This document shows, piece by piece, positions 3,289-35,578 of a stretch of DNA of 40,901 nt. The notes under the pieces are model-generated. The model was not told the DNA's origin. It saw only the letters and a list, made by a program, of their open reading frames with translations, and did not search any database. The translations under genes and the position numbers were made by a program. The DNA comes from a virus (Duplodnaviria; Heunggongvirae; Uroviricota; Caudoviricetes): the IMG/VR virus record IMGVR_UViG_2563366888_000019, positions 1-40,901 of that record. The stretch is one strand, 5' to 3'. How positions within the stretch are numbered: the stretch's first letter is position 1; each line of letters begins with the position of its first letter.

Positions 3289-3585
3289 TCAAATAGAGAA
3301 ATAAACACAAAAACAAAAAACAACAGGAACAGCAAAATCCAACAGACTTCCCACATCCCACACGCGTGGATCAAAACCTCCCCACCACGGCATGTTGATA
3401 CGTTTCCCTTTCCCAAACTTTTCTATCCAGCGATATTCTGCCTGGGTGTGTTCACGCGCAATGAAGAACGTACAACCGGCTATCGCACCGTAAGCCCAGT
3501 TTCCGGTAAAAATACCAACCAGTACCTGAGCCGCAAAAGCGCAAAGCGAGTGAAGAAATGGAGTGACATCAATGCTCTTAATCAT
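3289..3585 (-). CDS. small membrane protein translationally coupled to tailspike (98 aa)
   Basis: ATG overlaps tailspike stop (ATGA); hydrophobic helices. Confidence 0.45.
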   Translation of the reverse strand: MIKSIDVTPFLHSLCAFAAQVLVGIFTGNWAYGAIAGCTFFIAREHTQAEYRWIEKFGKGKRINMPWWGGFDPRVWDVGSLLDFAVPVVFCFCVYFSI

Positions 3586-5771
3586 GAAACTTCCCCATTG
3601 GTTGAAAATATGGCTCCTCCAACGCCAAGTGTATTTCGTGTTGTGCTCAACCTCAGAGGGCTGGAGTCAGAATTAGAATATCCTGTAGCAGAAATAAAAG
3701 ATCCTCCACTAATAGTCAACTGCGGAACATCGGCTATATCTGAATAAGTTCTGTCAGCAACAGTATTATTTATAGCCACATATGATCCAAAAAAACTTCT
3801 TATTGTTTGGTTTTTAACTTTACTTCCTTCAATGGTTATCCTACTACCACAGTCGGCAATAAATCCTGAATCTGCATCCAGCGTTGCATTCATAAAAGAA
3901 GCTTCAGATCTCTCTACATCAATCCATCTAATATCTTTTGTGGGATTTGCACCAAATACATGACAAATATTAGAGTTAAACCTTACACCATCTTGGAGGT
4001 GCATTAATTTTTTTATATCTGTACCCCATAGCCTTGGAAAATTAACAGATGCTCCTGCATGGCAATCAAATCCCAGCTCAGCCCCTGAGATATCTACAGC
4101 CTTTCCTGAAATAACAGCACCAGTGTCTGCATTAACGGCTGTTCCACAATTGCGCATATCATTACCAGCAACATCAACGCAACCCGCACCATCAATACGC
4201 ACACCAAGTGCACATCCATAAAAACCTTTTTCAATATTTGGTTCAAGGACTTTACCACTTGTTTCTGCATCACTTTCTTCAACGTCATGTCGTCTTGCAT
4301 CAACATATGCTGTATGAATGCAGGTTAATCCACGATATGAGCAATGTATAGTTTTATGGTCGCGTATATTAACATTTGAACCATCTCTTACATTCCATCC
4401 TATATAACAATAGATTGCACTTGACCCCTGAAAATCTGCTTTAACATTATAAATACAATTAACTGACGCAACCGTACTCTCTGTGCACCGTTCAAACTTG
4501 CTTACAGGCATTGATGCCTTGACATTATTTACCAGTTGCAGGGAAGAGTATCTGCTATAAGAAAAATCACATACGTAATATCCTTCTGGCATATATGCAG
4601 CAACACTTTCCTCATCAGGAGCACATCCGGTATGATATGCACTAATTTTTGCACCAAAACTACCATGAATTCCAACGTAGAACTTTCGAGCACCTGAATA
4701 CGGATAGAAATTAAGTTCAGCTTTTTGAGTTACAATAAATGCACAAACATCGCTATCATCTCTATTTTCTTCGATCTGAATAGCAAATACAGGACTTTTT
4801 GCTGCATCGCAAATGTAAAATAAATACTTGTATTCGTAATACGTTCTAACGATTTTAGTAAACAAACGAGTGTCAGAGAAAACCACTGAGTCTTCTGATG
4901 TTATTTTAATCCAAGACAAATCAACACCTGAACTGAATTCAATTTGATAGTTGATAATATGCCCGGTCTTAATTCTTATTTCGCAGAAAGCATTACCACC
5001 ATCCCACATAGGTCTCATTGACTGGGCTGCAATGATTGCATCTTTGAGTGTAGGGTAATCACCCCATTCGCCAACAGTAATAACAAAAGTATAATATGAG
5101 TTAAAAACAGCGGCATTTTTGCCTTTGGATATCAACTCCTTAATCATAAAAATATTATCTTCGTAATCACAAGGAGAAATTATATCCCTCATTTTGCTTT
5201 GAAATGTTCGTTGTCTTGCCCCGCTTCCTGACGGTATAAACCAACCAAAACCACCAACAACCCCGGCGATTGCAGCATCGACATAATTACGCATTGAGCG
5301 ATTATTTACAGCGTCCTGCTCAAATGATGGATCTGCAAGGTTAGAAATTTTGTTTTGCTTTGCATCGTAATATTTTGCAAGCAAAGATGGTTTCATCAAT
5401 GCACGTCTGAACCACCCAAAACATCGCTGGATCAGCATCGTCAGGTAGTCAAATGCATCTTCATGAACTTCGGGGAAAAATTTTCCCTGATTGCGAAGAT
5501 CAGTCTCCTGCACCACATCAAGCACACGCTCTATCGTAATTCGCCAGCCAGCAGCAAGCGGCGACGGGAGAACCACTTCACCGCCACTATAAGTGCCCGC
5601 TCCAGTTACCTTATAACCGGTATCCAGAACCAATTCTGTTACGTTCCCGTTCAGGTCAGACACCTGAACAACCAGGTCTGATTTTTTGAAAATACGGAAG
5701 GTATACGGAAACGATGTCGTAACGCCGTTACCGGTGTATTCGTTGTGGTCAACTTCGGTTGAGACCGTCAT
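3582..5771 (-). CDS. tailspike / tail fibre with T7-type N-terminal adaptor and beta-helix-like C-terminal domain (729 aa)
   Basis: N-terminal ~120 aa resemble the conserved podovirus tail-fibre adaptor domain; C-terminal part AT-rich, Gly/Asn/Ser/Cys-rich. Confidence 0.8.
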   Translation of the reverse strand: MTVSTEVDHNEYTGNGVTTSFPYTFRIFKKSDLVVQVSDLNGNVTELVLDTGYKVTGAGTYSGGEVVLPSPLAAGWRITIERVLDVVQETDLRNQGKFFPEVHEDAFDYLTMLIQRCFGWFRRALMKPSLLAKYYDAKQNKISNLADPSFEQDAVNNRSMRNYVDAAIAGVVGGFGWFIPSGSGARQRTFQSKMRDIISPCDYEDNIFMIKELISKGKNAAVFNSYYTFVITVGEWGDYPTLKDAIIAAQSMRPMWDGGNAFCEIRIKTGHIINYQIEFSSGVDLSWIKITSEDSVVFSDTRLFTKIVRTYYEYKYLFYICDAAKSPVFAIQIEENRDDSDVCAFIVTQKAELNFYPYSGARKFYVGIHGSFGAKISAYHTGCAPDEESVAAYMPEGYYVCDFSYSRYSSLQLVNNVKASMPVSKFERCTESTVASVNCIYNVKADFQGSSAIYCYIGWNVRDGSNVNIRDHKTIHCSYRGLTCIHTAYVDARRHDVEESDAETSGKVLEPNIEKGFYGCALGVRIDGAGCVDVAGNDMRNCGTAVNADTGAVISGKAVDISGAELGFDCHAGASVNFPRLWGTDIKKLMHLQDGVRFNSNICHVFGANPTKDIRWIDVERSEASFMNATLDADSGFIADCGSRITIEGSKVKNQTIRSFFGSYVAINNTVADRTYSDIADVPQLTISGGSFISATGYSNSDSSPLRLSTTRNTLGVGGAIFSTNGEVS

Positions 5772-5874: not shown

Positions 5875-5891
5875 ATTACCTTTCAGGTAAT
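5875..5891. promoter_or_regulatory. operator-like 17-bp palindrome ATTACCTTTCAGGTAAT (site 1, perfect)
   Basis: perfect 7-3-7 inverted repeat in divergent intergenic region between tailspike and antirepressor-like gene. Confidence 0.6.
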
Positions 5892-5927
5892 TTGCAAAAC
5901 GTGCTGGATAGCAAACAAATTATTTGC

Positions 5928-5947
5928 TACTGTATAAATATACAGTT
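5928..5947. promoter_or_regulatory. LexA (SOS) box TACTGTATAAATATACAGTT
   Basis: CTGT-N8-ACAG, 18/20 match to the E. coli consensus as recalled; ends 20 bp upstream of ATG 5967. Confidence 0.7.
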
Positions 5948-5966
5948 ATTGCATGGAGAAGATAAG

Positions 5967-6224
5967 ATGCAGCAGTATCACTATCCACTGGAAGACGGAT
6001 TTACCGAAAGGATTCACACGCCGGGAGGCGTCAGGTCACTGGTGGAGGGATCGCATTTGATGAAATTACTCCGGGATCTCGATAAGGATGGATTTAATGT
6101 CGATGGCCCACTTGCCGAACTGACTGCACTGATTAACTACGTCACCAGCTCACAGATGTCTATGCAGGATCTGCAAACACATCTCGACTATTGTGCCGAA
6201 CAATTACGAAAACAAACCACATAA
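5967..6224 (+). CDS. small antirepressor-like protein (85 aa), probably SOS-controlled
   Basis: GGAGAAG SD; LexA box in its promoter; ~40% identity by eye to the C-terminal domain of the Bro-N protein at 7693..8388. Confidence 0.55.
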   Translation: MQQYHYPLEDGFTERIHTPGGVRSLVEGSHLMKLLRDLDKDGFNVDGPLAELTALINYVTSSQMSMQDLQTHLDYCAEQLRKQTT

Positions 6225-7282: not shown

Positions 7283-7299
7283 ACTACCTTTAGGGTAAA
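7283..7299. promoter_or_regulatory. operator-like palindrome ACTACCTTTAGGGTAAA (site 2, degenerate)
   Basis: 12 bp upstream of ATG of 6744..7271. Confidence 0.45.
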
Positions 7300-7454
7300 C
7301 ATTCTATCGAAAGTATACGCTCACTGGCAAAAAAATAGGCAGGTATTTTCTGAAATGGGATCAATCAAACCACATAGGGTTGAAATGACGTGAGTTATGC
7401 ATTTATCATTACCTTTGCGGTAAATTTACATTGCACTCCTCTTGTGCCATAGTA

Positions 7455-7540
7455 ATCGGGCACTGGCAAAATCCAGTGCCGGGATTGGCGTTCCGGATTA
7501 CTAAAAGGCGCATTCACCGCGCAAGCGGTTTTTTTATGCG
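7455..7540 (+). ncRNA. candidate structured RNA / leader element with terminator
   Basis: 10-bp-stem hairpin CGGGCACTGG-N6-CCAGTGCCGG followed by ACCGC-GCAA-GCGGT plus T7 terminator; no credible ORF. Confidence 0.3.
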
Positions 7541-7692
7541 TATAGCACGGCCACATTCGTATTATGGTGGGCTGTGTGGGGGCACCGAAAGGTGCGCCGG
7601 GTCCTTTTAGCCGGTTACGCCAACCCTGCACAGTTCACCACCAACCGATTGGCGTCGGTAGTGGTGATTAACCAGACTAAAAGGTAACCACT

Positions 7693-8388
7693 ATGACAGC
7701 TACAAAAAGCACGTCCATTTTTTCTTTCGAATCCCAAGCCGATATACGAGTAATCGTCATAAATGGTGAGCCATGGTTTATCGCTTCAGATGTTTGTCGG
7801 GCTATAGGCATAGCAAACCATCGAGATGCTGTTCGAAAACTTGATGATGATGAGAAGGGCGTCGCTTCAACCGACACCCCTGGCGGTGAGCAAGAATCGA
7901 TCATCATCTCCGAGTCAGGCCTCTACACACTGATCCTCCGCTGCCGCGACGCAGTGACACCAGGCACTATCCCCTACCGCTTTCGTAAATGGGTTACAGG
8001 TGAGGTTCTTCCTCAGATCCGCCGCACCGGAAGTTACATTAAAAACTCGCTCCCGCAGGAAGAACGCATAAAGATGGTTGCCGACCAGGTAGCCAACGCC
8101 ACAGCATCAGCAGTGATGCAGGCAATGAAGATAGAGAACAAAACCTACAGCGCCCCACTGAAGCCCGGCTACCGCAGTTTGATTCACTCGCCGTCTGGTG
8201 TTCTCGGCCTGACGGAGAACTCACTGCTGATGAATCTGCTGAACCAGTTACAGGAAGACGGGCACGACGTATCGGGCGCGGCGGCGGAGCTGACCACCAT
8301 GTTCTGCTACATCGTCGGTGTGAGTAAATGCCTGCGTGATATCCAGACCCACGCGGAATACATCAACGACAAAGCAGGGTTCTTCTGA
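7693..8388 (+). CDS. Bro-N domain antirepressor-type protein (231 aa)
   Basis: N-terminal region matches BRO-N pattern; C-terminal domain paralogous to 5967..6224; AAAAGG SD. Confidence 0.7.
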   Translation: MTATKSTSIFSFESQADIRVIVINGEPWFIASDVCRAIGIANHRDAVRKLDDDEKGVASTDTPGGEQESIIISESGLYTLILRCRDAVTPGTIPYRFRKWVTGEVLPQIRRTGSYIKNSLPQEERIKMVADQVANATASAVMQAMKIENKTYSAPLKPGYRSLIHSPSGVLGLTENSLLMNLLNQLQEDGHDVSGAAAELTTMFCYIVGVSKCLRDIQTHAEYINDKAGFF

Positions 8389-8458
8389 CAGCGGCGGCAC
8401 AGGGATGTGCCTTTAAATAATTCGGTACAGATTGCAGACAGGGGGTGAATAGAGTACT

Positions 8459-8475
8459 ATTACCCCAAAGGTAAA
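8459..8475. promoter_or_regulatory. operator-like palindrome ATTACCCCAAAGGTAAA (site 3)
   Basis: 26 bp upstream of ATG 8501. Confidence 0.5.
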
Positions 8476-25968: not shown

Positions 25969-26045
25969 GTGGCATTAGCTCAGTTGGACAGAGCAACCGC
26001 CTTCTAAGCGGTTGGTCGCAGGTTCGAATCCTGCATGCCACGCCA
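25969..26045 (+). tRNA. tRNA-Arg (anticodon UCU)
   Basis: 77 nt; acceptor stem GTGGCAT/ATGCCAC, T-loop GGTTCGAATCC, anticodon loop CTTCTAA, discriminator G and encoded CCA; close to host argU-type tRNA as recalled. Confidence 0.85.
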
Positions 26046-30631: not shown

Positions 30632-31240
30632 TCAGTCTCCTTTGATGCGAATGCCAGTAGCGCGGATTGCATCGATGACTTCAGAAACTTTGTATGCCAT
30701 TACCGTTTGGTAATCATCGTGAAAATCTGTTCGATGAAGCATGCTGCTACGTTCTGGGAGCGATATTTCCCGTGCTTCCAGTTCTGCAATGCGCTTCTCT
30801 GCGGCTTCCAGCTTCTCGCGCATATCGTCAACGTACTCGACCAGAGAACCGCCAGCAGGAATTTCGCACTCCTCGACTAGTTGGAAGTAGATATCCGCTG
30901 CGGCCCGTGTGTTGCTATGCCTAGCGTCGCCCATCTCACCTTCACGAAGAGCATCGCGTTCGGCGGTAAGATTGGCTATTTTGCTGTCTTTGCCTTCCAG
31001 CTCAACGCGCAACTTCCCTACCGTTAGCGCAATATCCTCGTTCTCCTGATCGCGGCTTTTGATGTATTGCAGGTTTCTTTCCCGTTCATCCAACAATGCC
31101 AGCGCGATATCTGGCGAAAAGTGCTTCATAAAATCGTTAAGCGCATTAATTCGCTGATCGAAAGGCATTACAGGTGCTTCACCAGCAATTTTTGTTTTTT
31201 CAGCGATTTCACGAAGCTTTTGATAATCAATCTTGCTCAT
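30632..31240 (-). CDS. Ead/Ea22-like protein (202 aa)
   Basis: N-terminus MSKIDYQKLREIAEK resembles Ea22-like family; coiled-coil centre. Confidence 0.55.
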   Translation of the reverse strand: MSKIDYQKLREIAEKTKIAGEAPVMPFDQRINALNDFMKHFSPDIALALLDERERNLQYIKSRDQENEDIALTVGKLRVELEGKDSKIANLTAERDALREGEMGDARHSNTRAAADIYFQLVEECEIPAGGSLVEYVDDMREKLEAAEKRIAELEAREISLPERSSMLHRTDFHDDYQTVMAYKVSEVIDAIRATGIRIKGD

Positions 31241-33951: not shown

Positions 33952-34152
33952 TCAGCTTGAGTGTTGTGGGGAGGAATTAATCATGATCTGCTTAATCTCT
34001 GCCCTGATGCGACGGTTTGATTCCATGGTGCACTCAACACAGTGTCCGTTGTAAACCCAGCGTTCACTGTCATGTCCGTGCTTACATGTTTTTCCGGTGT
34101 AGTAGCGTTTAAGTCCGCGCTTTGCGGCATCAATACGTGTAATGATTTCCAT
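33952..34152 (-). CDS. small basic Cys/His-rich protein (66 aa)
   Basis: ATG at 34152; CKHGHDSERWVYNGHCVEC motif; between Cro-like and O-like genes. Confidence 0.4.
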   Translation of the reverse strand: MEIITRIDAAKRGLKRYYTGKTCKHGHDSERWVYNGHCVECTMESNRRIRAEIKQIMINSSPQHSS

Positions 34153-34231
34153 GGTAAGCCCTGTTATTAGTATTGGGATTACGGTTATTTTGTGCTGACA
34201 CAAAAAAAAGATCAACCATATTTGGTTTTTT

Positions 34232-34248
34232 ATTACCTTTGAGGTACG
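34232..34248. promoter_or_regulatory. operator-like palindrome ATTACCTTTGAGGTACG (site 8)
   Basis: between Cro-like gene stop and the 33952..34152 gene. Confidence 0.45.
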
Positions 34249-34302
34249 AATAGATATGAAAAGACCGCCGGATGGCGGTCTACAGAGGGTTGTGGCTGGA
34301 TA

Positions 34303-34533
34303 TCATGAGTAGAAGAAGTATGCCAGTTCTGCTTTTGAGCGCAGCCATTGTCTTGTTTTACAGGCTTTAAAAAGCCCATTCATCAATACCTTACCTGGCA
34401 TTTTGCGCTTACCTGTTAAGTGAGTCTGGATATAGTGACTCGTCGTTCCGGCTTCCTGTGCGAAGGCTTCACGCTCATCCGGAGTAAGTGCAAGCCAGTG
34501 CTTTTTGAAATCGAAATGTCCGTTATCGCTCAT
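34303..34533 (-). CDS. Cro-like HTH regulator (76 aa)
   Basis: first gene of minus-strand early operon, divergent from repressor; HTH-like EAFAQEAGTTSHYIQTHL. Confidence 0.5.
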   Translation of the reverse strand: MSDNGHFDFKKHWLALTPDEREAFAQEAGTTSHYIQTHLTGKRKMPGKVLMNGLFKACKTRQWLRSKAELAYFFYS

Positions 34534-34545
34534 AGCTATTGCCTG

Positions 34546-34569
34546 ATATTTATTTCAGATAATAAATAT
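34546..34569. promoter_or_regulatory. AT-rich inverted repeat ATATTTATT-N6-AATAAATAT
   Basis: perfect 9-bp arms adjacent to Cro-like start; not a LexA box. Confidence 0.35.
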
Positions 34570-34585
34570 TCACCTATAAGGTAAC
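34569..34585. promoter_or_regulatory. operator-like palindrome TTCACCTATAAGGTAAC (site 9)
   Basis: divergent immunity region. Confidence 0.45.
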
Positions 34586-34599
34586 AAAAATCAAGGATA

Positions 34600-34616
34600 G
34601 TTACCCATGAGGTGCA
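34600..34616. promoter_or_regulatory. operator-like palindrome GTTACCCATGAGGTGCA (site 10, degenerate)
   Basis: divergent immunity region, abuts site 11. Confidence 0.4.
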
Positions 34617-34633
34617 TTTACCTGTTGGGTAAT
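34617..34633. promoter_or_regulatory. operator-like palindrome TTTACCTGTTGGGTAAT (site 11)
   Basis: divergent immunity region, ~55 bp upstream of repressor ATG. Confidence 0.55.
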
Positions 34634-34687
34634 ATTGCTTTAAATTGAATCATCTTCTGATTCAGATATGAGGCGATTTTCCAGAAA

Positions 34688-35272
34688 ATGAAAAGTATCC
34701 AGGACGTCCGCAGGCAAAATCTCAACGACTTGATCGACCGTGAATTCAATGGTGTTCAGACGCGGATGGCTGAAAAACTTGGAACTCAGGCAAATCTGGT
34801 AAACCGCTGGGCTCTTGGCAAGAAGGTTATCGGCGACCAGGTTGCGCGAAAAATTGAAGCTGCCGCCAATAAACCCCGTAACTGGCTTGATATCGATCGC
34901 TCGCTTTCTCAGGAAGGTTTTCAGCCTGTCGGACCAAGCGACATTGGTCAACTGGCGGCTCACAACCTGGAACGCTGGATGAGCGAAAGCCGCGACCTTT
35001 CAACGCAGGGAAAACTTCACCGCGCATCCGGCGTCGCCCAGGTGACAATCAGCCGCCTGTTAAACAATGAGGTCAGCGTTTCCATTTCCACCCTGGAGAA
35101 TGTTGCATCCGCATTCGGGCGTCACGGCTATGAATTACTGATTCACCCGCACGACCCTGCGACTATCAACTATGACCGCTCGCGCTACGCTTTGTTACCC
35201 GAAACCGAGAAAGCAAAGATCGAAAGTTACATTGAATTTGTCATCAACCAGAACGAAAAAAACAAACAATAA
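34688..35272 (+). CDS. prophage repressor candidate, tandem HTH, no S24 peptidase domain (194 aa)
   Basis: two HTH-like segments (QTRMAEKLGTQANLVNRWALG and ASGVAQVTISRLLNNEVSVS); no Ser-Lys autocleavage motifs; divergent from Cro-like; weak SD; terminator follows. Confidence 0.55.
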   Translation: MKSIQDVRRQNLNDLIDREFNGVQTRMAEKLGTQANLVNRWALGKKVIGDQVARKIEAAANKPRNWLDIDRSLSQEGFQPVGPSDIGQLAAHNLERWMSESRDLSTQGKLHRASGVAQVTISRLLNNEVSVSISTLENVASAFGRHGYELLIHPHDPATINYDRSRYALLPETEKAKIESYIEFVINQNEKNKQ

Positions 35273-35292
35273 AATCATATTTTTCAGTAAGT

Positions 35293-35318
35293 AAGCCGCC
35301 TTATGGCGGCTTTTTTAT
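35293..35318 (+). terminator. rho-independent terminator
   Basis: GCCGCC-TTAT-GGCGGC then T7. Confidence 0.7.
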
Positions 35319-35328
35319 TGCCTATTCT

Positions 35329-35345
35329 ATTACCTAACGGGTAAT
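35329..35345. promoter_or_regulatory. operator-like palindrome ATTACCTAACGGGTAAT (site 12, perfect half-sites)
   Basis: 19 bp upstream of -35 TTGACA. Confidence 0.6.
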
Positions 35346-35363
35346 TTTTTTAACTCATATCTA

Positions 35364-35392
35364 TTGACACCAAACCAGATACGCATAATTAT
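35364..35392 (+). promoter_or_regulatory. early-left promoter candidate
   Basis: -35 TTGACA at 35364-35369, AT-rich -10 region about 17 bp later, flanked by sites 12 and 13. Confidence 0.45.
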
Positions 35393-35407
35393 TACCTCAA
35401 CGGTAAC
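35391..35407. promoter_or_regulatory. operator-like palindrome ATTACCTCAACGGTAAC (site 13)
   Basis: overlaps -10/+1 of the early-left promoter; centre 62 bp from site 12. Confidence 0.6.
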
Positions 35408-35425
35408 AGACCGAGGTAACAAGTT

Positions 35426-35578
35426 ATGCAGTGGAAAATCATCAACGGTTGGTACTGCGTTACTGCATGCGGATTCATGAGCTGGAAGTTCCGCACCTTA
35501 CAGGAAGGCATTAAGTGGGCTTTCGTCAGCAAAGAAGCTCGCGATGTAGCCAACGATAACGAGATATGGGAGGGCTGA
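35426..35578 (+). CDS. small hypothetical protein (50 aa)
   Basis: GAGGT SD 8 nt upstream of ATG; first gene of plus-strand early operon. Confidence 0.4.
   Translation: MQWKIINGWYCVTACGFMSWKFRTLQEGIKWAFVSKEARDVANDNEIWEG

Follow-up and report, generated by a model that had tools for sequence, protein, structure and literature searches.

The stretch of DNA analysed here (the window, 40,901 nucleotides) is 98.7% identical at the DNA level to phage phiV10 and very probably represents a phiV10-type (Uetakevirus) temperate podophage prophage in E. coli, with the region described below as its primary immunity switch. The genes and sites in and around this region are the following:

34233-34247, no strand: Rep operator TTACC-TTTGA-GGTAC, one mismatch, at the restart of rightward transcription
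34262-34281, minus strand: intrinsic terminator directly after the Cro-like gene (8 pairs, 6 of them G-C, loop of 4, tail TTTCAT, -15 kcal/mol)
34303-34533, minus strand: Cro-like gene for a 76-aa single-domain XRE-type HTH protein, assigned from the ORF and the predicted fold
34546-34554 and 34561-34569, no strand: AT-rich perfect inverted repeat ATATTTATT-N6-AATAAATAT, covering the Cro-side -10 and start region
34587-34582 and 34564-34559, minus strand: candidate Cro-side (PR-like) promoter, -35 TTGTTA and -10 TATTAT, from consensus and PWM scans
34594-34589 and 34571-34566, minus strand: alternative candidate Cro-side promoter, -35 TTGATT and -10 GAATAT, from the same scans
34570-34584, no strand: operator O1, TCACC-TATAA-GGTAA, one mismatch, its weak outer half-site kept in relatives
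34601-34615, no strand: operator O2, TTACC-CATGA-GGTGC, two mismatches, its weak right half-site conserved
34618-34632, no strand: operator O3, TTACC-TGTTG-GGTAA, perfect, its half-sites invariant in 13 of 13 aligned loci
34617-34645, plus strand: best candidate for the rep promoter (P_rep), -35 TTTACC (34617-22), 17-bp spacer, -10 TTAAAT (34640-45), proposed by inference
34646-34664, no strand: perfect inverted repeat TGAATCA-N5-TGATTCA, covering the start predicted for P_rep
34688-35272, plus strand: rep, a 194-aa SPC32H-type prophage repressor, from the ORF list and homology
35293-35318, plus strand: intrinsic terminator of rep (stem 35293-35312, 8 pairs, 6 of them G-C, T6 tail)
35330-35406, plus strand: predicted early-left promoter TTGACA-17-AATTAT (35364-35392), downstream of the rep terminator

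The first-pass annotation had described this region as a repressor gene diverging from a Cro-like gene across 154 bp, with three operators and an AT-rich 9-N6-9 inverted repeat between the genes and a strong terminator isolating the repressor from an early-left promoter, and all of these elements are indeed present, at the given positions or a few bases off. The spacer between the two open reading frames (34534-34687) measures exactly 154 bp with 32% GC, the inverted repeat is perfect, and the predicted early-left promoter lies beyond the rep terminator, which has a folded energy of -21 kcal/mol and is annotated in phiV10, as is the terminator behind the Cro-like gene. For comparison, related loci were collected from a genome scan and contig look-ups, giving 13 aligned loci including the window and 14 in the PWM scan; Rep identity across the other 12 loci ranges from 41 to 81%, and the positions of O1, O2 and O3 are retained in all of them. 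Of 5426 complete E. coli genomes, 541 (about 1 in 10) contain the same type of prophage, and an IMG/VR scan returned 80 loci, every one encoding an identical Rep protein.

Rep is 100% identical to p40 of phiV10, which is labelled in the phiV10 record as a "putative transcriptional repressor, two HTH motifs", and to ORF21 of phage ZX5, whose overexpression abolished free phage and lowered the endolysin and holin mRNAs by 99.97-99.99% (PMC9782041). A phmmer search of the PDB aligned its amino acids 1-190 to amino acids 2-197 of the SPC32H Rep protein (5D50_A, E=4e-42), and the global identity of 41% is distributed over the N-terminal domain (54%), the middle domain (34%) and the C-terminal part (43%). 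Because of this rather low overall value, the oligomeric state of Rep and the mechanism of its antirepression by Ant should be regarded as extrapolated from SPC32H. Structure prediction had been proposed as a check on the 194-aa protein, and the resulting AlphaFold2 model shows two five-helix bundles and a C-terminal helix (pTM 0.40), with low confidence in the linker and in amino acids 157-162 and without reproducing the C-terminal beta-hairpin of the tetramerisation motif; the top 12 Foldseek matches of this model are all entries of 5D50 or 5D4Z. Pfam HTH_3 matches amino acids 106-147 (1e-9), and a YdaS/Cro-type Pfam match at amino acids 21-61 stays below threshold. No Peptidase_S24 domain was found in Rep by Pfam at E<=0.1, its C-terminal half consisting of the HTH_3-like segment and a helix. 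As judged from these data, Rep would be composed of an N-terminal DNA-binding HTH module (amino acids 1-60), an HTH_3-like middle module (about 85-152) and a C-terminal module for tetramerisation and Ant binding (about 153-194). The recognition helix NLVNRW in the N-terminal module is invariant across the Rep family and common to SPC32H Rep. An internal duplication as the source of the two HTH domains was considered and rejected, BLASTP showing no similarity between the halves.

The description of Rep as a tandem-HTH protein holds for the fold, which does contain two HTH-like domains, but probably not for the way it reads DNA: in SPC32H Rep, as described in PMC9986798, an N-terminal DNA-binding domain is followed by a dimerisation domain, equivalent to the second HTH-like domain here, and by a C-terminal domain for tetramerisation and Ant binding. 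On these grounds, DNA recognition by Rep most likely does not involve its two HTH units working in tandem. A true tandem binder of the POU type, in which one polypeptide would read a whole operator or an operator and its flank, might be argued from the second domain giving the stronger Pfam match (the HTH_3 one), from its invariant residues Q118 and R123, which are of the recognition-helix type, and from its Foldseek alignment to DNA-binding XRE proteins. We regard it as very unlikely, as both half-sites of the two-fold palindromic operator are identical and the sequences of the two domains are unrelated, with NLVNRW and QVTISR as their respective helices. Moreover, PMC9638917 describes SPC32H Rep as binding DNA as a tetramer that is broken by Ant, operator binding requiring this tetramer with pairs of DNA-binding domains coming from different dimers. 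The second alternative, namely that the 194-aa protein is not the master repressor but an antitoxin of the HigA/VapI type or some generic XRE regulator, goes back to the record of phage BP9, which names it "plasmid maintenance system antidote protein VapI", and it might also draw on a weak TIGR02607 (HigA) match and on HigA structures among the distant Foldseek matches. However, the TIGR02607 score of 18.7 bits is far under the family cutoff of 47.7, no toxin gene adjoins rep, which has the Cro-like gene and a recET-like operon as neighbours, and the protein is homologous over its full length to a characterised phage repressor, with the cognate antirepressor encoded in the same genome. Together with the block of lytic growth on overexpression of the identical protein (PMC9782041) and with the 11 exact cognate palindromes of the window, of which the 10 with regular spacing are intergenic or promoter-proximal, this effectively refutes the antitoxin reading.

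The Rep operators are predicted from the sequence to follow the palindrome (A)TTACC-N5-GGTAA(T) and to occur at many promoters. Exact matches to TTACC-N4-7-GGTAA number 11 in the window, compared with 0.13 expected from shuffles, and the same consensus is marked in the GenBank record of epsilon15 as "repressor" protein_bind sites; the window differs from phiV10 and ZX5 at operator spacers, leaving the half-sites untouched. Within the divergent region, the centre of O2 lies 31 bp from that of O1 and 17 bp from that of O3. A perfect operator flanks the predicted early-left promoter on either side (35330-35344 and 35392-35406), the two centres being 62 bp apart, a spacing shared by 11 of the 13 loci. 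The operator at 34233-34247, located upstream of a 66-aa gene (33952-34152) and the replication genes, has counterparts in 8 of the 13 at roughly -442 to -455 relative to the rep ATG. The conserved operator spacings of 17, 31, 48 and 62 bp would fit a single Rep tetramer bridging two operators.

The absence of a convincing Shine-Dalgarno sequence before rep, noted in the first-pass annotation, is borne out by the calculated anti-SD duplex at positions -15 to -4, which amounts to +0.3 kcal/mol and ranks 53rd among the 53 genes of a closely related annotated prophage with an identical rep upstream sequence (median -6.4). The sole purine-rich element before rep is GAGG at 34670-34673, 14 nt ahead of the ATG. 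The three weakest ribosome-binding sites among the genes checked in the phage belong to rep, to the Cro-like gene and to the next gene, and this points to expression being kept low deliberately. No promoter-like element except the candidate P_rep keeps its position in as many as 12 of the 14 loci, in which the -10 has the form TnnAAT; the P_rep hexamers are weak (4 of 6 positions each), and the consensus scan did not list it because only 8 of 12 consensus positions match. Judging from these hexamers, transcription is predicted to start near 34652, so that the rep transcript most likely carries a leader of about 36 nt, while a leaderless transcript is neither shown nor favoured. Because O3 overlaps P_rep, autorepression of rep is predicted. 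With the strongest operator at the promoter of the repressor gene itself, this layout inverts the lambda OR3 logic, and P_rep could be misplaced. A mini-ORF (ATG34668...TGA34691, encoding MRRFSRK) has an ATGA overlap with the rep start; translational coupling by this element was rejected, since the upstream ATG is confined to some of the relatives. Finally, an Rfam search of 34150-35450 returned only sub-threshold, terminator-driven matches, so no known RNA element explains the rep leader.

Two further elements of the spacer are not Rep operators. When the 154-bp spacer was dinucleotide-shuffled, 1.75% of the shuffles reached a perfect arm of at least 9, as in the AT-rich repeat at 34546-34569, and no second copy of this repeat exists elsewhere in the window. 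Its sequence is conserved in relatives, where substitutions break the pairing without compensation, so that an RNA hairpin is unlikely; the element may be bound by the Cro-like protein or by some host factor. The repeat TGAATCA-N5-TGATTCA (34646-34664) was not among the features named in the first-pass annotation. Its right arm ATTCA is kept in 10 of the 13 loci, a 7-bp arm alone is not unusual (reached in 17% of spacer shuffles), and the window contains no further copy. An RNA hairpin was rejected here as well, given a predicted start inside the left arm, a weak leader fold of -3.6 kcal/mol and the lack of compensatory changes; the repeat may serve as a binding site for the Cro-like protein.

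The 76-aa protein encoded on the opposite strand is called "hypothetical" in phiV10 (p41), epsilon15 (gp39) and SPC32H (042) and by PGAP. It is predicted to adopt a five-helix fold of the lambda-repressor/Cro type with an HTH and matches PHROG 35, a "transcriptional repressor" family, at 5.6e-13; no Pfam or NCBIfam family match was obtained, and HTH_31 is matched by just 6 of 23 homologues (best E 0.0035). O1 lies within either of the two Cro-side promoter candidates, whose predicted positions derive from a consensus scan and a PWM scan over 14 loci, and the terminator directly behind the gene makes it a transcription unit of its own.

Two rival views of the switch itself have to be weighed against this picture. 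The rep mRNA might be leaderless from A34688 and be produced from a weak, activator-dependent promoter with GATTTT (34675-34680) as -10, and this promoter would be activated in class-I fashion by Rep bound at O3 (centred near -63), much like PRM by lambda CI. In favour of this reading, rep has no SD at all in the canonical window, the SD is missing in all 13 loci, the first four Rep codons (MKSI) are invariant in the family, and the distance from O3 to the ATG stays within 1 bp in 11 of the 13 loci, which suits a promoter geometry better than a free leader. Furthermore, a TACAAT in epsilon15 and SPC32H ends 5 nt before the ATG, with an operator half-site in its -35; only this lineage has a TACAAT near enough to the ATG for a leaderless mRNA. 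In the lineage of the window, however, a good -10 is absent from the place 6-8 nt ahead of ATG 34688, where GATTTT matches at 3 of 6 positions and has no recognisable -35 (ATCTTC), roughly 40% of AT-rich sequences are estimated to contain an nAnnnT near the right distance by chance, and the element is replaced in relatives by GATTCA (L004) or AAAATA (L005), both without the final T. With the better-conserved -35/-10 pair of P_rep located 42 nt further upstream, we consider a leaderless rep mRNA rather improbable. The other view holds that the 76-aa protein is not a Cro but a CII-like establishment activator or a co-repressor or modulator of Rep, similar to MOR of TP901-1, leaving the switch without a Cro function. 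It would account for the lack of a Pfam or NCBIfam family claiming the protein, for its "hypothetical" status in all records, for a terminator of its own that is unusual for cro, and for the absence from the rest of the window of any repeated operator-like site distinct from that of Rep. The gene nevertheless occupies the canonical cro position, opening the rightward unit and diverging from the repressor gene, its product belongs to a repressor family according to PHROG, and two conserved palindromes cover both promoter start regions, where a Cro would act, which makes this view unlikely.

Induction would depend on a module in a distant part of the window:

5876-6224, plus strand: induction module with a Rep operator (5876-5890), a LexA box CTGTATAAATATACAG (5930-5945) and ant (5967-6224)

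The 85-aa product of ant matches 5D50_E at E=9e-47, and the same arrangement of operator and LexA box is found upstream of SPC32H ant. An additional Ant of the BRO type (7693-8388) is encoded in the prophage behind a C4 RNA (Rfam RF01695, 77.7 bits) and isrK (RF01394); the ZX5 study took the BRO-type ORF4 as antirepressor in its test (PMC9782041).

The scheme that we infer from these features, including the promoter positions, the autoregulation, the looping, and what the Cro-like protein does and where it acts, would operate as follows. The N-terminal HTH of Rep would recognise (A)TTACC-N5-GGTAA(T), while its middle HTH_3-like domain and C-terminal segment would assemble dimers and tetramers. 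In a lysogen, Rep at O1 would block the Cro-side promoter, Rep at O2 and O3, which overlap its own promoter, would limit its own synthesis, and Rep would also sit on operator pairs or single operators of every other early and late unit, including the early-left promoter. Translation of rep without a usable SD, most likely from the leader of about 36 nt, would keep the repressor low. As Rep has no self-cleavage domain, induction should proceed via the small antirepressor: DNA damage would remove LexA, and the Ant then made would bind the C-terminal part of Rep and take it off the DNA. The derepressed rightward promoter would yield the 76-aa Cro-type protein, which presumably shuts down rep expression. 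Going beyond this scheme, one may combine an SD-less, possibly leaderless rep that is switched by Rep at O3, about 63 bp from the ATG, with tetramers clamping operator pairs of 62 or 17/31 bp in tiny repression loops around promoters and with a Cro-like protein using palindromes of its own at 34546-34569 and/or 34646-34664. Such a combination is improbable as a whole; if true, each of the two regulators in this lysis-lysogeny switch would have an operator set of its own.

The immunity region is the lysis-lysogeny control of a common prophage type of E. coli, that of phiV10 and epsilon15, and as such already known; since its repressor family has already been structurally solved and experimentally tested, the switch should be regarded as real but ordinary. 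The current picture of phage switches stays unchanged, the mechanism being already established for SPC32H and epsilon15, and the value of the analysis lies chiefly in annotation, as the 76-aa gene, the operators and the small LexA-controlled ant are unannotated or "hypothetical" in public records. Read correctly, the prophage would be SOS-inducible via an antirepressor and not via repressor cleavage, and essentially all of its transcription units appear to carry operators for one and the same repressor.

The closest known system is the Rep-Ant antirepression of Salmonella phage SPC32H (PDB 5D50 and 5D4Z), reportedly described by Kim and Ryu in 2013 (J Virol) and by Kim et al. in 2016 (PNAS); gp38 of epsilon15 is 97% identical to SPC32H Rep. 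The window shares with these two phages the full-length homology of Rep and Ant at the E values given above, the gene order with ant divergent from the tailspike gene and a recET-like operon downstream of rep, the divergence of rep from a 76/77-aa gene, the ATTACC-N5-GGTAAT consensus with three sites in the divergent region, the LexA box and Rep operator upstream of ant, and the lack of an S24 cleavage domain. It differs from them in the 55-bp stretch from O3 to the ATG, which contains the TGAATCA-N5-TGATTCA palindrome here and the TACAAT by the ATG there, and in the extra BRO-type Ant behind the C4 and isrK RNAs. Even closer in sequence are phiV10 (DQ126339, genes 40 and 41) and vB_EcoP_ZX5, whose Rep and Cro-like proteins are 100% identical to those of the window and whose divergent regions match it at 149-150 of 154 positions; their records and the ZX5 paper (PMC9782041) annotate no operators, no promoters in the divergent region, no Cro-like function and no small LexA-controlled ant.

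Compared with the CI-Cro switches of lambda, P22 and 434, the common features are divergent repressor and cro-type genes with three intergenic operators overlapping both promoters (predicted ones in our case), a repressor gene without an SD, and an early-left promoter that has operators of its own and lies beyond a repressor unit bounded by a terminator. In contrast to those systems, the repressor described here has no S24 autocleavage domain and, by analogy to SPC32H, would be a tetramer-forming, three-module protein inactivated by an antirepressor; the perfect operator is on the repressor-promoter side instead of the cro side, the operators extend over about 10 transcription units instead of two, and cro is followed by a terminator of its own. 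The logic of an uncleavable repressor combined with a LexA-repressed antirepressor is shared with the Gifsy-type phages and with phage 186 (Tum), and the second ant behind a C4 antisense RNA and isrK resembles the arrangements in P1 immI (the c4 antisense RNA-ant system of P1 and P7) and Gifsy-1. The repressors P1 C1 and 186 CI, however, belong to unrelated families that have neither the fold arrangement nor the operator in common with Rep.

The window is a temperate podophage of the phiV10 type (genus Uetakevirus, epsilon15-like) integrated in E. coli. Its segment 34200-35450 is 98.7% identical to phiV10; of 5426 complete E. coli genomes, 541 carry this segment, as do 19 phage records. The immunity region proposed in the first-pass annotation, with a repressor gene (rep) diverging from a Cro-like gene, is correctly recognised and real, yet already known, because the exact repressor has been annotated and functionally tested, the family has been crystallised, and the operator consensus stands in a public record. 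In the phiV10 record, the 194-aa product is a 'putative transcriptional repressor; two helix-turn-helix motifs', and the terminators 3' of both rep and the Cro-like gene are already annotated. Rep, the product of rep, has the same amino-acid sequence (100% identity) as phiV10 p40 and ORF21 of phage vB_EcoP_ZX5; overexpression of this repressor in ZX5 resulted in zero free phage and lowered the endolysin and holin transcripts by >99.9% (PMC9782041). The spacer between the divergent genes matches those of phiV10 and ZX5 at 149-150 of 154 positions. The 4-5 differences affect operator N5 spacers, the loop of the TGAATCA palindrome, or the first base past its right arm, and none falls inside half-sites or palindrome arms in this 154-bp comparison. 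The three operators (O1, O2, and O3), the AT-rich 9-N6-9 inverted repeat, and the strong terminator separating rep from the early-left promoter, all claimed before, are indeed present in the following layout.

34303-34533, minus strand: Cro-like ORF, 76 aa
34534-34687: divergent spacer, exactly 154 bp, 32% GC
34546-34554 and 34561-34569: arms of the AT-rich inverted repeat
34570-34584: O1, TCACC-N5-GGTAA
34601-34615: O2, TTACC-N5-GGTGC
34618-34632: O3, perfect match
Cro side: overlapping candidate promoters TTGTTA-17-TATTAT and TTGATT-17-GAATAT, with O1 inside either
34617-34622 and 34640-34645: candidate rep promoter, -35 TTTACC, 17-bp spacer, -10 TTAAAT
34646-34664: palindrome TGAATCA-N5-TGATTCA, over the predicted rep start region
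34688-35272, plus strand: rep ORF, 194 aa
3' of rep: terminator, -21 kcal/mol followed by U6
35364-35392: early-left promoter-like site TTGACA-17-AATTAT, after the rep terminator, with one perfect operator on each side

In the AlphaFold2 model of Rep (pLDDT 77), two five-helix bundles (aa 4-59 and 85-151) precede a long C-terminal helix; Foldseek places only 5D50 and 5D4Z among its first 12 matches, with XRE proteins such as NHTF, SinR, and HigA coming next. A phmmer search of the PDB gave a match over the full length to the repressor of SPC32H, a Salmonella phage (5D50_A, E=4e-42), and one to its crystallised fragment 92-198 (5D4Z). Published descriptions present SPC32H Rep as composed of an N-terminal DNA-binding, a middle dimerisation, and a C-terminal tetramerisation/Ant-binding module with a p53-like fold (PMC9986798), and as a tetramer on DNA, in which the DNA-binding domains paired at one palindrome come from different dimers and which is taken apart by the tetrameric antirepressor Ant (PMC9638917). 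By subtraction, the Pfam HTH_3 match in Rep (aa 106-147) would represent the middle, dimerising domain of this scheme. The earlier designation as a tandem-HTH protein is apt for the fold, but probably not for how the DNA is read, because the operator is a symmetric palindrome, a comparison of the two domains with each other gave no sequence relationship, and their recognition helices differ. NLVNRW, the N-terminal recognition helix, does not vary within the Rep family and is found in SPC32H Rep too, which fits the common operator consensus. An S24 self-cleavage domain was not found in Rep.

The exact operator palindrome (TTACC-N4-7-GGTAA) occurs 11 times in the window versus 0.13 expected, and 14 sites are present at N5 spacing with ≤1 mismatch (5876, 7284, 7409, 8460, 25632, 28774, 28792, 32225, 32287, 34233, 34570, 34618, 35330, and 35392). 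Counting 34601 as well, the ~15 Rep operators are intergenic or promoter-proximal at nearly every transcription unit, the terminase and portal operons among them, which have such sites upstream, and thus Rep seems to silence late genes directly as well as the early promoters. Some sites are paired, either 62 bp (32225/32287 and 35330/35392) or 17-18 bp apart (28774/28792 and 34601/34618). A further palindrome with a 4-bp spacer (TTACC-GTTT-GGTAA, 30700-30713), inside or beside ORF 30632-31240 on the minus strand, is probably non-functional as an operator. Late-gene control aside, the terminase and portal operons flank a further feature. The region between these two operons contains a tRNA gene (25969-26042; Rfam tRNA, 73 bits), whose counterpart is annotated as tRNA-Arg in SPC32H and in a prophage of E. 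coli GF43.

The comparison covered the window, epsilon15, SPC32H, Tyrion, six genome loci, and four contigs, with 13 loci in the spacer alignment and 14 in the promoter scan; their Rep proteins share 41 to 81% identity with that of the window. O3 is invariant across the 13 aligned loci, and O1 and O2 keep both their positions and their weak half-sites. The centre-to-centre distances recur at 31 (30) bp for O1-O2, 17 bp for O2-O3, and 48 bp for O1-O3, and the early-left pair keeps a distance of exactly 62 bp in 11 of 13 loci. Such fixed spacings would fit two operators being gripped by one Rep tetramer.

The weak Shine-Dalgarno sequence previously ascribed to rep is borne out by the absence of anti-SD pairing at -15 to -4 (+0.3 kcal/mol), the sole purine-rich element being GAGG, 14 nt upstream. 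In a closely related annotated prophage, which has an identical rep upstream sequence, rep ranks 53rd of 53 genes in predicted anti-SD pairing, the Cro-like gene 51st, and the next rightward gene (33952-34152) 49th; the entire immunity region seems to be built for weak translation. A leaderless rep mRNA, as suggested in the first-pass annotation, would agree with the conserved SD absence and the tightly conserved distance between O3 and the ATG, but requires a -10 element at ~34675-80, where the hexamer is GATTTT (3/6), unconserved and without a -35; only the epsilon15/SPC32H lineage offers a good TACAAT near the ATG. In the rep-ward scan of 14 loci, TTTACC/TTAAAT was the only promoter-like element of constant position, its -10 reading TTTAAT, TCTAAT, or GATAAT in relatives. 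From this candidate promoter, transcription would begin near 34652 and yield a leader of ~36 nt, and we lean toward a leadered, poorly translated rep mRNA. The overlap of O3 with the candidate promoter implies negative autoregulation of rep. A seven-codon mini-ORF (34668-34691; ATG AGG CGA TTT TCC AGA AAA TGA), whose stop overlaps the rep start as ATGA, is probably incidental because its ATG exists in only some relatives.

The 76-aa protein is 'hypothetical' in all records examined and has no Pfam or NCBIfam family, but matches PHROG 35 'transcriptional repressor' (5.6e-13). AF2 models it confidently with five helices (pLDDT 86.5), and its HTH aligns with that of the immunity repressor 8BNY in a profile search (E=0.02); the term 'Cro-like' is supported by predicted fold and position. 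The palindromes 34546-69, for which a perfect arm of at least 9 occurs in 1.75% of spacer shuffles, and 34646-64 are conserved, are not Rep operators, and lie over the two predicted start regions, making them candidate targets of the Cro-like protein. Neither has a second copy elsewhere in the window, which would resemble the Cro of telomere phage PY54, reportedly acting with a single operator. A terminator (34262-34281) directly follows the Cro-like gene, which forms a transcription unit of its own, and a separate region with an operator (34233-34247) appears to be where transcription toward the replication genes starts again. This region lies upstream of the gene for a Cys/His-rich protein of 66 aa (33952-34152; phrog_1081, a family with no assigned function).

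Two further modules carry Rep operators, the second of them being another immunity module, similar to P1 immI (7284-8474).

5876-5890: Rep operator upstream of ant
5930-5945: near-consensus LexA box upstream of ant, CTGTATAAATATACAG
5967-6224: ant, 85 aa, matching SPC32H Ant (5D50_E, E=9e-47)
7284 (1 mismatch), 7409, and 8460: Rep operators of the P1 immI-like module
7460-7535: isrK RNA, 72 bits, upstream of the BRO-N/AntA gene
7560-7645: C4 antisense RNA, 78 bits, upstream of the BRO-N/AntA gene
7693-8388: BRO-N/AntA antirepressor gene, 231 aa

The 231-aa protein has a C-terminal domain homologous to the small Ant (phrog_450) and is the counterpart of the ZX5 protein that was tested as 'ORF4 anti-repressor'. 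The ant gene, divergent from a 729-aa ORF (3582-5771), is annotated as 'hypothetical protein' in related records; the module 5876-6224 connects the switch to the SOS response. Control of ant by LexA, and release of Rep from DNA when Ant binds its C-terminal domain, are reported by Kim & Ryu 2013 and Kim et al. 2016. The epsilon15 GenBank record lists seven 'repressor' binding sites with the consensus ATTACC-N5-GGTAAT, as for the window, and its divergent region also has three operators, though the record leaves them unannotated. In SPC32H, the operator and LexA box upstream of ant are laid out as in the window, and the gene order is the same.
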